Assembly (NCBI RefSeq): GCF_041886205.1
Contig: NZ_CP169029.1
Reading direction: 5' to 3' (one strand)
Source of the DNA: Escherichia coli
GTDB lineage: Bacteria > Pseudomonadota > Gammaproteobacteria > Enterobacterales > Enterobacteriaceae
Length of the DNA: 64,000 nt
Shown here: positions 24,210 to 36,116 of the stretch, in pieces
Layout: each line of letters starts with the position of its first letter
Position numbering within the stretch: the first letter of the stretch is position 1
Translations under genes and position numbers: made by a program
The notes under the pieces: model-generated
Seen by the model: only the letters and a program-made list of their open reading frames with translations
Databases searched by the model: none
Told to the model about the DNA's origin: nothing

Positions 24210-24590
24210 ATGATTCGCACGATGCTGCAGGGCAAACTCCACCGCGTGAAAGTGACTCATGCGGACCTGCACTATGAAGGTTCTTGCGCCATTGACCAGG
24301 ATTTTCTTGACGCAGCTGGTATTCTCGAAAACGAAGCCATTGATATCTGGAATGTCACCAACGGCAAGCGTTTCTCCACTTATGCCATCGCGGCAGAACG
24401 CGGTTCGAGAATTATTTCTGTTAACGGTGCGGCGGCCCACTGCGCCAGCGTCGGCGATATTGTCATCATCGCCAGCTTCGTTACCATGCCAGATGAAGAA
24501 GCTCGCACCTGGCGACCCAACGTCGCCTATTTTGAAGGCGACAATGAAATGAAACGTACCGCGAAAGCGATTCCGGTACAGGTTGCTTGA
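24210..24590 (+). CDS. panD: Aspartate 1-decarboxylase proenzyme (pyruvoyl-dependent)
   Basis: 126-aa [32 protein letters not shown]; self-cleavage Gly24-Ser25 codons at 24279-24284. Confidence 0.96.
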
Positions 24591-24593
24591 TTG

Positions 24594-25823
24594 TTATCCC
24601 TGCGGCTGGTTACTCACCAGCCGCGACATCGTCTCCAGCGAATCCGTTCTTAAGATATAAAGTCGTTTTAGTAACAACGGATTATCCCCCGGTTTTACTT
24701 TGCCTTTCATGGTTGTCACCGCCAGGTGAAATCCGGCATCGTTTGCTGCCTTCACGGCTTTGTCATTAAATCCGCCAAATGGATACGAAAGATACCAGAC
24801 ATGCGGATTAAATTGCGCCAGAGCGCGGCGTGAACGTGCAAAATCAAACAGAATATTGTGCTCACTACGGCTCAGTAATATGGGGCGGCGATAACCATCC
24901 ACCCGATGCAAAAAATGGGTATGTGACTGGAAATCAAAAACATCGCGAATTTCGTTAAGCTCAGAAACGCTCATAAATTGCAGCGATTTTGGTTCCCACT
25001 TCTGCGGGTGACGTTTGATGCGTGAGGTAACAATAAACGCCGTCGCCTTCATGCCATATTGTTTCAACACAGGATACGCATGGCGGCTCACCGACTTGAG
25101 GCCATCATCAAAGGTAATCACCACCGCTCGCGCAGGGAGATTGATCTTATTCTTCACGTAACCTTCCAGCTGCACCATGCTCAGTGTCGCGTATCCCCTG
25201 TCGCGCAGCCAGGCCATCTGGTTATTGAAAGCGCGTACCGAGGTGGTCGTCGAAGTATGGCGAAAACGGGTGTTTTCTTCGTCGCGCAGAATATGGTGAT
25301 AAGTTAGCACCGGAAGGCCATTATCGGGTTGGGCATCCAGCGCGCTGATATAGGCCAGTCGATCGCCAATACGGACCTGATACCAGGTTTGATTTAACCT
25401 GTCTTTCAGTTTATGCAAAATCGGGTAGCGCAAATTGTCCGCCAGTACCCCAAATGGCGCACTGCCCACACTCGGCGCGTTATAGACCGGCGTATCTTTC
25501 CAGGTAACTAAGTTCTGATTACTCAGCGGCTTGTTGAGGTCACCCAAACCGTCTTCAACTTTTTGTCGCCCCTGAACCGGCTCAAGATGACCTTTATCGA
25601 TAAACCCTTTACCAAAGCCAAAATTAAATGCGTAATAACTTGCGGCAGTGGGCTCCACGGCAATGATTTGTCCGGCCCGAATATTCCCCACGGTCACCAT
25701 CTTGTCACCAATTTGCGCCCAGACCGCAGCATTTTCGATGGTTTGCATATAACGGGCAGGTAACGCGGCACTGACACTTGCGGTAAACAGCATCAGCAGG
25801 AGAATAACAGCTTGTTTGTACAT
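24594..25823 (-). CDS. yadE: Secreted polysaccharide deacetylase-family protein (NodB domain)
   Basis: 409-aa ORF with signal peptide; NodB motif [11 protein letters not shown] in the C-terminal half. Confidence 0.85.
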
Positions 25824-25886
25824 GAAAAAATAACCGAGGGTGAAACAACGCTTTTATTGTAGCAAAAGCGCCATCAGAATCGCGGG

Positions 25887-26327
25887 TTAATACTCATACA
25901 AATTATGTTTGAGGACGAAAGGCGGATTTTTTTGTTGCTGGTGCCAAAGACTACTCACCTCCGGCCCACCCAGTTCGACAATACGCTCGCGAAACTCTGA
26001 ACTGGTCATGGTTTCACGGCAAGCCATCATCTGTTCAATTAACGGTAACGTGACACCAGAAATCACTTCGCAACGGGAGTGTTTGTGGCTTAATAATGAA
26101 GCCACGCGATACGGTGGCGCTCCGGCTATATCGGTTAAGAAGATGACACCCTCACCAGAGTCCGCTTCATGCAGAGCATCGCACATCATGCGGCTGAGCA
26201 TATTAGAGCTTAACCCACGCCAGAAATTCACGGCCCGGCACTGAAGAAGTGCCCCATGTTTTTTCTCCAGCGCATCCAGTATCTCTTGCGCCCGGTCATC
26301 GTGACAGGTAATTACCCAACCTAACAT
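25887..26327 (-). CDS. yadI: PTS EIIA (mannose family)-like protein, orphan
   Basis: 146-aa ORF; N-terminal MLGWVITCHDD with conserved His typical of EIIA-Man. Confidence 0.8.
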   Translation of the reverse strand: MLGWVITCHDDRAQEILDALEKKHGALLQCRAVNFWRGLSSNMLSRMMCDALHEADSGEGVIFLTDIAGAPPYRVASLLSHKHSRCEVISGVTLPLIEQMMACRETMTSSEFRERIVELGGPEVSSLWHQQQKNPPFVLKHNLYEY

Positions 26328-26396
26328 CGCCTTCCTCCTTAGCCGAAAATCAGTCTACCCTGACCATTGTTGATAAAGGGTGATAGCCGTCAAAAC

Positions 26397-26424
26397 TCCT
26401 CTCCCCCAAATCCAGAGGAGAGGA
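26397..26424 (-). terminator. Hairpin (tcctctcc/ggagagga) downstream of yadH; putative terminator of yadG-yadH
   Basis: Inverted repeat read from sequence; weak T-run on minus strand. Confidence 0.4.
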
Positions 26425-26431
26425 AATAGCC

Positions 26432-33821: not shown

Positions 33822-33860
33822 AGTTATTTCCTTATTCTTAAGCAGGCGAAACAAAATCAA

Positions 33861-33900
33861 ACGTTGAGCATAGTCCTTCCCCTTACGGGAAGGTCAAGCC
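33861..33900 (-). promoter_or_regulatory. cueO promoter with CueR operator (19-bp palindrome CCTTCCCCTTACGGGAAGG at 33875-33893) and adjacent TTGACC -35
   Basis: Perfect inverted repeat matching the recalled CueR box, between a -35-like TTGACC and a -10-like element upstream of cueO. Confidence 0.7.
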
Positions 33901-33986
33901 GCAGACACAATTTAATCGACAATAATGGTCGTCGCCTCGCTCGCAGTGTGCTAACGTTTATCTTCTTTAAGCCCCTGGTAGAAGCA

Positions 33987-34334
33987 ATGAAGACGTTTTT
34001 CAGAACAGTGTTATTCGGCAGCCTGATGGCCGTCTGCGCAAACAGTTACGCGCTCAGCGAGTCTGAAGCCGAAGATATGGCCGATTTAACGGCAGTTTTT
34101 GTCTTTCTGAAGAACGATTGTGGTTACCAGAACTTACCTAACGGGCAAATTCGTCGCGCACTGGTCTTTTTCGCTCAGCAAAACCAGTGGGACCTCAGTA
34201 ATTACGACACCTTCGACATGAAAGCCCTCGGTGAAGACAGCTACCGCGATCTCAGCGGCATTGGCATTCCCGTCGCTAAAAAATGCAAAGCCCTGGCCCG
34301 CGATTCCTTAAGCCTGCTTGCCTACGTCAAATAA
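33987..34334 (+). CDS. yacC: Small secreted protein of unknown function (YacC)
   Basis: ORF 33816..34334; start refined to ATG 33987 (MKTFFRTVLFGSLMAVCANSYA signal peptide); 115 aa. Confidence 0.85.
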   Translation: MKTFFRTVLFGSLMAVCANSYALSESEAEDMADLTAVFVFLKNDCGYQNLPNGQIRRALVFFAQQNQWDLSNYDTFDMKALGEDSYRDLSGIGIPVAKKCKALARDSLSLLAYVK

Positions 34335-34439
34335 TCCCTGATACCTTTTTGTAGAAATATTGACCGTGCATCCGCGGTCAATGTTAGCTATTATGTTGCG
34401 CCCTTTTTTTACGGGTGTTAACAAAGGAGGTATCAACCC

Positions 34440-35306
34440 ATGGCCGAAAAAAAACAGTGGCATGAAACGCTACACGACCAGTTTGGGCAGTACTTTGCGG
34501 TAGATAACGTTCTGTATCATGAAAAGACCGATCACCAGGATCTGATCATTTTTGAGAACGCTGCATTTGGTCGCGTAATGGCGCTGGATGGCGTAGTACA
34601 AACCACCGAGCGCGACGAGTTTATCTATCATGAGATGATGACCCATGTTCCGCTACTGGCCCATGGTCACGCGAAACATGTGCTGATTATCGGCGGCGGC
34701 GACGGTGCCATGCTGCGTGAAGTAACCCGACATAAAAACGTTGAGTCAATCACGATGGTGGAAATCGATGCGGGTGTCGTATCGTTCTGCCGTCAGTATC
34801 TACCCAACCATAACGCCGGTAGCTACGACGATCCGCGCTTTAAGCTGGTGATCGACGATGGCGTCAATTTCGTTAATCAAACCAGCCAGACCTTTGATGT
34901 CATTATCTCCGACTGCACCGATCCTATCGGTCCCGGCGAAAGTCTGTTCACCTCAGCATTTTATGAAGGCTGCAAACGTTGCCTGAATCCTGGCGGTATC
35001 TTCGTCGCACAAAACGGCGTCTGCTTTTTACAGCAGGAAGAGGCTATCGACAGTCATCGCAAACTCAGCCATTACTTCAGCGACGTTGGCTTTTATCAGG
35101 CGGCGATCCCGACCTATTACGGCGGTATCATGACTTTTGCATGGGCGACAGATAACGACGCCTTACGCCATCTCTCAACCGAAATTATTCAGGCGCGTTT
35201 TCTCGCTTCTGGCCTGAAATGCCGTTATTACAATCCGGCAATCCATACGGCAGCTTTTGCCTTACCTCAGTATCTGCAAGACGCACTGGCTTCACAGCCG
35301 TCCTAA
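34440..35306 (+). CDS. speE: Spermidine synthase
   Basis: 288-aa ORF; GGGDG motif. Confidence 0.95.
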
Positions 35307-35321
35307 GGAGAAGATAAGAAA

Positions 35322-36116
35322 TTGAAAAAACTGAAACTGCATGGCTTTAATAATCTGACCAAAAGTCTGAGTTTTTGTATTTACGATATCTGCTACGCCA
35401 AAACTGCCGAAGAGCGCGACGGTTATATTGCTTATATCGATGAACTCTATAATGCCAACCGTCTGACCGAAATCCTGTCAGAAACCTGTTCCATTATCGG
35501 GGCCAATATTCTTAACATCGCCCGCCAGGATTACGAACCACAGGGTGCCAGCGTCACTATTCTGGTGAGTGAAGAACCGGTTGACCCGAAACTCATCGAC
35601 AAAACAGAACACCCCGGCCCACTGCCAGAAACGGTCGTTGCCCATCTCGATAAAAGTCATATTTGCGTACATACCTACCCGGAAAGTCATCCTGAAGGCG
35701 GTTTATGTACCTTCCGCGCCGATATTGAAGTCTCTACCTGCGGCGTGATTTCTCCGCTGAAGGCGCTGAATTACCTGATCCACCAGCTTGAGTCCGATAT
35801 CGTAACCATTGATTATCGCGTGCGCGGTTTTACCCGCGACATTAACGGTATGAAGCACTTTATCGACCATGAGATTAATTCGATTCAGAACTTTATGTCT
35901 GACGATATGAAGGCGCTGTATGACATGGTGGATGTGAACGTCTATCAGGAAAATATCTTCCATACCAAGATGTTGCTTAAAGAGTTCGACCTTAAGCACT
36001 ACATGTTCCACACCAAACCGGAAGACTTAACCGACAGCGAGCGCCAGGAAATTACCGCTGCGCTGTGGAAAGAGATGCGCGAGATTTATTACGGGCGCAA
36101 TATGCCAGCTGTTTAA
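35322..36116 (+). CDS. speD: S-adenosylmethionine decarboxylase proenzyme (pyruvoyl-dependent)
   Basis: 264-aa ORF beginning at TTG 35322 ([18 protein letters not shown]); processing site Lys111-Ser112 codons at 35652-35657. Confidence 0.93.

Follow-up and report, generated by a model that had tools for sequence, protein, structure and literature searches.

Intact panD and speD proenzyme genes in an Escherichia coli chromosomal segment and the conserved TTG start of speD

The region studied here almost certainly represents the well-characterized panD and speD genes of E. coli together with their pathway partners panB–panC and speE, and nothing was found that contradicts the identification of panD and speD. 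Both are intact textbook genes, already known and correctly annotated by standard pipelines. The window, i.e., the whole 64,000-nucleotide stretch of DNA that was analyzed, extends on the E. coli chromosome from fhuC to lpxC with the gene order of K-12. It differs from strain wlxctx60 (NZ_AP045833.1) at 13 of its 64,000 positions, and the part from 21000 to 36200 is 100% identical to that genome; at least 80% of this part is covered in 5334 of 5426 complete genomes. A chance origin of the gene identities can be dismissed because the scores against the TIGR00223, TIGR03331 and TIGR00018 profiles lie far above their cutoffs. The features are compiled in Table 1. A promoter scan gave 16 sites, with 16.1 expected, and was uninformative.

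Table 1. Features of the panB–panC, panD and speE–speD regions (positions in the window)
Feature	Position	Strand	Remarks
panB CDS	21091..21885	+	PF02548; annotated
TAAGGAG, panB stop fused to panC Shine–Dalgarno	21883..21889	+	7 nt before GTG; duplex −8.7 kcal/mol
panC CDS, pantothenate synthetase, 283 aa	21897..22748	+	GTG start 21897–21899, TAA stop; TIGR00018
panD CDS, aspartate 1-decarboxylase proenzyme, 126 aa	24210..24590	+	ATG start, TGA stop; PF02261, TIGR00223; RefSeq/PGAP annotation
PanD Gly24 (GGT, 24279–24281) and Ser25 (TCT, 24282–24284), cleavage site/pyruvoyl precursor	24279..24284	+	sequence reading
PanD Thr57 and Tyr58 codons, processing/catalytic residues	24378..24383	+	residues present
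speE CDS, spermidine synthase, leading gene in the speED operon	34440..35306	+	PF01564, TIGR00417; annotated
TAAGGAG, speE stop fused to speD Shine–Dalgarno	35304..35310	+	11 nt before TTG; duplex with 16S rRNA 3′ end −10.7 kcal/mol
speD CDS, class 1a S-adenosylmethionine decarboxylase proenzyme, 264 aa	35322..36116	+	TTG start, TAA stop; TIGR03331
speD TTG initiation codon	35322..35324	+	annotated start; sole candidate
SpeD Lys111 (AAA, 35652–35654) and Ser112 (AGT, 35655–35657), cleavage site/pyruvoyl precursor	35652..35657	+	sequence reading
SpeD His117 codon	35670..35672	+	present
SpeD Cys140 codon	35739..35741	+	present
Intrinsic-terminator-like hairpin (12 pairs, 8 GC) and T-run	36121..36148	+	terminator scan, top match; 5 nt past speD stop

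The PanD protein is identical in 126 of 126 residues to the crystallized E. coli proenzyme (PDB 1ppy). With the TIGR00223 equivalog profile it reaches 228 bits (cutoff 106) over residues 1–126 of 126, and with PF02261 158.4 bits (cutoff 25). K9, H11, Y22, G24, S25, R54, T57, Y58 and N72 are all found in the sequence, and Lys9, His11, Tyr22, Arg54, Tyr58 and Asn72 we take to be processing and catalytic residues. The initial annotation had placed the cleavage site at Gly24–Ser25, exactly where the codons GGT TCT are read, and PDB depositions of the same protein list a beta chain of residues 1–24 and an alpha chain of residues 25–126. This site is also the one named for PanD in the literature (PMC3496974), and a further paper states that activation of PanD requires Thr57 (PMC3975893). 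K-12 PanD (b0131; PDB 1AW8, 1PPY and others) is 100% identical with the same Gly24–Ser25 site; upstream sequence, ATG start and the neighbors rpnC and yadE are shared as well, and the two genes differ by only 2 nucleotides, both synonymous.

Comparable evidence is available for SpeD. The protein scores 491.5 bits against the TIGR03331 equivalog (cutoff 255.8), with residues 3–261 aligned to profile positions 1–259, and 53.9 bits against PF02675 (cutoff 25). The proposed cleavage site Lys111–Ser112 was recovered as AAA AGT, and there are zero amino-acid differences from K-12 SpeD. Ser112, His113, His117 and Cys140 are invariant in all 110 homologues from other species among the matches listed, and Lys111 is kept in 107 of these 110. 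His117 presumably has a role in processing, and Cys140 is, as we assume, the catalytic proton donor. The masses computed for the protein starting at TTG are 30,384 Da for the proenzyme and 12,440 and 17,962 Da for its products. The enzyme purified by Tabor and Tabor in 1987 reportedly showed roughly 30.4, 12.4 and 18.0 kDa, and the computed masses agree with these values. When the PDB was searched with the SpeD sequence, 2iii was the single match and a marginal one (E = 0.0066), so that this search gave no close solved structure for the E. coli-type SpeD. The match sufficed for placing the processing serine but was too weak for a structural test of the expected AdoMetDC fold, an alpha-beta-beta-alpha sandwich. 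The alignments to the characterized proteins confirmed the cleavage residues of both enzymes: Ser25 and Ser112, the two pyruvoyl precursors, are without substitution, and the processing and catalytic residues accompany them.

Our data concern the identity of the genes, the intact residues, the gene boundaries and the conservation of the start codon; the cleavage chemistry, the enzyme activities and the coupling come from established knowledge. According to the latter both proteins would be made as inactive proenzymes in which the internal serine (Ser25 in PanD, Ser112 in SpeD) attacks the peptide bond before it. The polypeptide would be split at this point, and the serine would turn into the pyruvoyl cofactor at the N-terminus of the larger subunit. 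This cofactor would then form the Schiff base used in decarboxylation. By decarboxylating aspartate PanD would supply the beta-alanine needed for pantothenate and CoA, and SpeD would convert AdoMet to decarboxylated AdoMet, from which SpeE could make spermidine. Cleavage and aspartate decarboxylase activity of PanD in the strain of the window would be expected on these grounds, and for SpeD we infer autoprocessing and AdoMet decarboxylase activity from its identity to the K-12 protein. In E. coli PanZ, the product of a gene outside the window, speeds the cleavage of PanD. The description of both enzymes as self-processing therefore needs a qualification: both are proenzymes of pyruvoyl-dependent decarboxylases, but purified E. 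coli PanD autocleaves slowly, and PanZ (YhhK) is needed for its activation in vivo and in vitro (PMC3496974). None of the 54 CDS annotated in the 64-kb window is panZ (yhhK).

The speD and panC genes would be translated from TTG and GTG, respectively, each codon lying just past the stop of the preceding gene. RefSeq/PGAP places these starts at 35322 and 21897, as the initial annotation had done, and does so likewise in the near-identical strain and in K-12 MG1655. Inspection of the Shine–Dalgarno (SD) spacing revealed a TAAGGAG motif at both junctions, 7 nt before the panC GTG and 11 nt before the speD TTG. The 11-nt spacing of speD exceeds the usual optimum. Since in both cases this motif, lying just before the start, contains the stop of the preceding gene, the geometry suggests that speE–speD and panB–panC are translationally coupled. 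The RNA folds of the speE–speD junction (35265–35385, z = 0.16) and of the panB–panC junction (21845–21960, z = 0.18) are no better than shuffled sequences, and no structured regulatory element was detected in either. Between speE, whose protein is identical to that of K-12, and speD there are 15 nt, and the terminator-like hairpin at the other end of speD sits between this gene and the convergent yacL.

As far as can be judged from the sequence, the TTG of speD and the GTG of panC are the only sensible starts. Upstream of the TTG the speE stop at 35304 follows in frame 5 codons away, and downstream the TTG is the sole ATG, GTG or TTG before codon 82; it is therefore the only possible speD start. 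The first in-frame ATG is codon 177, past Ser112. PanC scores 436.4 bits against TIGR00018 (cutoff 212.75), residues 1–281 matching profile positions 1–283, and is aligned over residues 1–283 with PDB 1iho, showing 3 substitutions. For panC the cross-species check covers the position of the N-terminus via PDB constructs, and the alignments with the top three crystallized relatives (1iho, 3mue and 3q10) begin at residue 1. In length, GTG start, SD and upstream sequence panC is as in K-12 (b0133; PDB 1IHO), and the protein differs by A92T, T227A and M279I, with 41 nucleotide differences (4.8%) in the gene. The panC gene diverges more from K-12 than the surrounding genes do.

The two start codons had been called unusual. 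They are indeed annotated as TTG and GTG, but they are not very unusual, since of the 54 CDS annotated in the window 4 begin with GTG and 1 with TTG; non-ATG starts amount to 6 of 54, and the rarest annotated start is the ATT of pcnB. A gene finder restricted to ATG would indeed truncate both genes, with panC losing 18 aa (start at Met19) and speD being reduced to an 88-aa fragment (Met177) downstream of the processing serine. This warning is, however, hypothetical only, because to our knowledge none of the bacterial gene finders in current use is confined to ATG, and GTG and TTG are routine for modern ones.

We also compared the start region of speD between species in an arbitrary sample of at least 120 loci. 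Among the matches listed, the homologous codon is TTG in 19 of 19 Enterobacterales species, and ATG, which is a single T-to-A change away, is never seen. In the same Enterobacterales codon 2 varies (K, H, Q, S or N), spacer length and sequence vary among the loci listed, and a stop is often found 1–3 codons upstream of the TTG. speE lies directly upstream of speD in all 18 listed Enterobacterales loci with enough flank. The peptide HGFNNLTK (residues 7–14) is conserved across phyla among the matches listed. Non-ATG starts occur in 71 of the 113 E. coli-type speD genes among these matches, with GTG in 15 of 16 Pseudomonas-like and TTG in 8 of 10 Methylococcales-like genes.

Two readings would set aside the annotated gene or its function. 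The TTG might be an annotation convention and the true start of SpeD might lie elsewhere; of the three canonical start codons TTG is after all the least frequent, with 1 of 54 CDS here, and the SD spacing is long. Yet the in-frame speE stop is close upstream and the next candidates are far downstream, the alignment to the TIGR03331 profile begins at residue 3, HGFNNLTK and the TTG itself are conserved as described, and a start at codon 82 would yield a beta chain of 3.3 kDa instead of 12.4 kDa. We therefore rejected this very improbable reading, as no other in-frame start exists before codon 82 and the N-terminus is conserved. It is also known that neofunctionalization is widespread in SpeD homologues (PMC10407285), and an intact serine alone is no proof of substrate specificity, so that the substrate of this pyruvoyl decarboxylase could be arginine or ornithine and not AdoMet. 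Against this, the same study treats the E. coli class 1a group as AdoMet decarboxylases and uses the E. coli speD deletion, which is spermidine-deficient, as its test strain (PMC10407285). Identity to K-12 SpeD, the TIGR03331 equivalog score and speE immediately upstream led us to reject a changed substrate, which is extremely improbable; we keep to AdoMet decarboxylase translated from TTG.

Why the TTG is retained is a different matter. The frequency of non-ATG starts in E. coli-type speD hints at a selected weak start. Messages of the polyamine modulon, whose translation is modulated by polyamines, are characterized by UUG or GUG starts and a distant SD. The long 11-nt spacing, the overlap of the SD with the speE stop, the TTG in 19 of 19 species and the 71 of 113 non-ATG starts compared with 6 of 54 in the window are the reasons for considering that the TTG is conserved by selection because it throttles translation, perhaps in response to polyamines or Mg2+, but we regard this reading as rather unlikely. 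The invariance may instead reflect phylogenetic inertia, start codons being slow to change, with no selection in favor of weak or regulated initiation. The 19 species all come from a single order, the sample of at least 120 loci is arbitrary, the RNA structure of the junction is ordinary, and our literature search found nothing tying speD to start-codon regulation or to membership in the polyamine modulon. In that search speDE appeared only as deletions in one paper (PMC9972920), and a further match, PMC2831307, was discarded as a source on speD, UUG and the polyamine modulon because what matched there was an author's name, "Spedding", among the references. Against inertia stand the diverged flanks (five amino acids at codon 2, a variable spacer) next to a codon for which the step to ATG is never seen among the matches listed, and the non-ATG starts in other clades; we give it somewhat less than an even chance. 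If the TTG throttle were selected, it would suggest that bacteria restrict, at the initiation of translation, how much they make of the enzyme that commits AdoMet to spermidine. Eukaryotic AdoMet decarboxylase is likewise under translational control, via an upstream ORF.

For a genome scan these results are of little consequence, the genes being intact and among the best characterized in E. coli. Every coordinate given in the initial annotation agrees with sequence and annotation, and the case serves well as a positive control, showing that raw sequence can be read accurately to the base. The rare TTG, invariant among the listed species of its order, and the strong enrichment of non-ATG starts in the enzyme family are a mildly useful comparative by-product.

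The closest known system is K-12 SpeD (b0120), which has the same TTG, the same 40 nt upstream and the same speE–speD operon. The two genes differ by 3 nucleotides, all synonymous, and because the proteins are 100% identical the membership of SpeD in class 1a is settled. Class 1b AdoMet decarboxylases (Bacillus/Thermotoga/Aquifex type; TIGR03330; PDB 2III) have the (E/K)-S-H cleavage motif in common with SpeD, and both match PF02675. Ser112 aligns with the processing serine in the ESH motif of 2III, as do the HTYPE/HTWPE segments. In contrast, SpeD has about twice the length of the class 1b enzymes (264 aa versus about 130), remains under the TIGR03330 cutoff (49.1 versus 75.65 bits) and carries Lys before the cleavage serine, whereas class 1b has Glu.

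Both pyruvoyl-dependent decarboxylase proenzymes of the window carry an intact cleavage site. In the aspartate 1-decarboxylase PanD the pair Gly24-Ser25 can be read directly at 24279-24284 (GGT 24279-24281, TCT 24282-24284), and the protein agrees in 126/126 residues, Ser25 included, with the E. coli proenzyme of crystal structure 1ppy. The cleavage point is shown directly by the processed PanD structures in the PDB, since their deposited chains are split into a beta chain of residues 1-24 and an alpha chain from residue 25. The protein furthermore matches PF02261 and the equivalog TIGR00223 and possesses K9, H11, Y22, R54, T57, Y58, and N72. 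In the S-adenosylmethionine decarboxylase SpeD, Lys111-Ser112 is encoded at 35652-35657 (AAA 35652-35654, AGT 35655-35657); the alignment with K-12 SpeD shows 0 amino-acid differences and Ser112 is intact. SpeD scores 491.5 bits with TIGR03331, the equivalog of the E. coli-type enzyme, and stays under the cutoff of the Bacillus-type model. An intact serine alone is no proof of the substrate, since arginine or ornithine decarboxylases have arisen repeatedly among SpeD homologues (PMC10407285). Here the identity to the K-12 protein together with the adjacent speE removes this doubt. Every coordinate of the initial annotation is confirmed, and its interpretation finds support, subject to minor caveats; the panD/speD finding itself is already known.

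One caveat concerns the description of PanD as self-processing. The cleavage chemistry is indeed intramolecular, but autoactivation of the purified E. coli protein is slow and activation depends on PanZ (YhhK) in vivo and in vitro; PanZ is found only in E. coli-related enterobacteria (PMC3496974). No panZ is present among the annotated CDS of the 64-kb window.

Coordinates of the genes and of the RNA and hairpin features
Feature	Position	Strand	Remarks
panC	21897-22748		GTG start, TAA stop
panD	24210-24590		ATG start, TGA stop
speD	35322-36116		TTG start, TAA stop
terminator-like hairpin	36121-36148		strong; follows speD
tp2 sRNA	47890-48003	+	Rfam match at gathering threshold; adjoins aceE/pdhR
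naRNA4 (REP-derived), copy 1	59278-59355	-	Rfam, gathering threshold; between yacG and mutT
naRNA4 (REP-derived), copy 2	59395-59471	-	Rfam, gathering threshold; between yacG and mutT
STnc40	59875-59944	-	Rfam, gathering threshold; between mutT and secA

The boundaries of panD, panC, and speD, among them the non-ATG starts proposed for speD (35322) and panC (21897), agree exactly with the PGAP annotation of a near-identical strain and with the K-12 reference, and all three genes share with K-12 both the start codon and the preceding 40 nt. For speD, only the TTG can work as a start: the speE stop codon (TAA, 35304) lies in the speD frame and precedes it by five codons, no further in-frame ATG, GTG, or TTG occurs before a GTG at codon 82, and the earliest ATG is codon 177, beyond the pyruvoyl serine. 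From this start we calculate 30,384 Da for the proenzyme and 12,440 and 17,962 Da for the subunits. The sizes which Tabor and Tabor are said to have given in 1987 agree with these masses. For panC, the GTG is the first start codon past an in-frame stop at 21837 and is followed by Met19 as the next candidate. The PanC family profile extends to residue 1, as do the three best crystallised relatives (1iho, 3mue, and 3q10), and the alignment with 1iho spans residues 1-283 with three substitutions.

Both genes are preceded by the Shine-Dalgarno sequence TAAGGAG, at 35304-35310 with a spacer of 11 nt for speD and at 21883-21889 with a spacer of 7 nt for panC, and in both cases its TAA also ends the preceding gene, speE or panB. 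This layout suggests that speE-speD and panB-panC may be translationally coupled. RNA folding at these two junctions was in neither case better than for shuffled sequence.

Are these starts unusual, as had been claimed? The 54 annotated CDS of the window begin with ATG (48), GTG (4; hrpB, panC, acnB, and secM), TTG (1; speD), and ATT (1; pcnB). GTG is commonplace, TTG uncommon yet canonical. The warning that ATG-only gene finders would truncate both genes holds in a formal sense, but is of no consequence with present-day tools. The only non-canonical start, absent from the initial annotation, is the annotated ATT (11661-11663) of pcnB, the poly(A) polymerase gene (11661-13058, + strand); the in-frame stretch upstream, which opens behind a stop at 11634, offers just a TTG at 11640. 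An AUU start is documented for E. coli pcnB.

Among the matches listed, the TTG of speD occupies the homologous codon in 19/19 Enterobacterales species of about 13 genera, from Escherichia to Yersinia, Photorhabdus, Erwinia, and Budvicia; it is usually the sole candidate with a stop one to three codons upstream, and codon 2 and the spacer are variable. Also among these matches, speE directly precedes speD in 18/18 Enterobacterales loci with enough flank, and the 17 of these in which a speE stop was placeable have spacers of 0-44 nt; of the matches from other clades, none shows speE upstream. Pseudomonas-like sequences in this set have GTG (15/16) and Methylococcales-like sequences TTG (8/10); family-wide the matches listed divide into ATG (42/113), GTG (30/113), and TTG (41/113), in a sample which is arbitrary and phylogenetically clumped, with starts set by a simple heuristic outside Enterobacterales and four loci without any start candidate. 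The pattern is consistent with selection that keeps the start weak on the enzyme committing the cell to spermidine synthesis, a question on which our literature search found no paper. Simple inertia could lie behind the same distribution, and we give it a chance just short of even.

The window extends from fhuC to lpxC and differs from NZ_AP045833.1 (E. coli wlxctx60) at 13 positions; the 15.2 kb from 21000 to 36200 are 100% identical to it and are covered to at least 80% in 5334/5426 complete E. coli genomes. In the stretch compared, yacH-yadC, the gene order is that of K-12 MG1655. The panB-panC block (20400-22753) shows 95.9% identity to K-12 versus 98.7% for 22949-39904, and practically no alignment with K-12 is obtained upstream of panB or at the yadC end. 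This divergence suggests that recombination may have occurred around the variable yad fimbrial operon. The window contains four genes of the pantothenate/CoA pathway, panB, panC, panD, and coaE (21091-24590; 57685-58305), and rpnC sits in opposite orientation between panBC and panD; RpnC has 298 aa versus 300 aa in K-12 and a different C-terminus. Between panC and rpnC there are about 195 nt (22754-22948) missing from K-12, with the ERIC/IRU-like repeat core CCCCAGGAGCTTACATAAGTAAGTGACTGGGG at 22871-22902, part of which is repeated near 43071 on the opposite strand. The segment is multi-copy in E. coli (median five places per genome), and 565/5426 genomes carry one or more copies with a coverage of 80% or higher.

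SpeD homologues were collected from species-representative genomes with a degenerate nucleotide pattern that encodes HGFNNLTK, a peptide near the N-terminus, giving at least 120 loci. Among the matches listed, Ser112, His113, His117, and Cys140 are invariant in 110/110 homologues of scorable length and Lys111 is found in 107/110, being Thr in three Paenibacillus sequences. Class 1a speD (the E. coli type, about 265 aa) also occurs among these matches in many Bacillota (Paenibacillus, Neobacillus, Peribacillus, Cohnella, and Clostridia), with 59-68% identity to the E. coli protein and the KSH motif kept (loci L004, L008, L011, L012, L022, L026, L027, and others); the class is thus not confined to Gram-negative bacteria. 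For the E. coli-type enzyme, a sequence search of the PDB turned up no closely related structure; its sole match was 2iii, a class 1b proenzyme (E=0.0066). In the comparison with this protein, Ser112 of the window SpeD lines up with the serine of its ESH motif.
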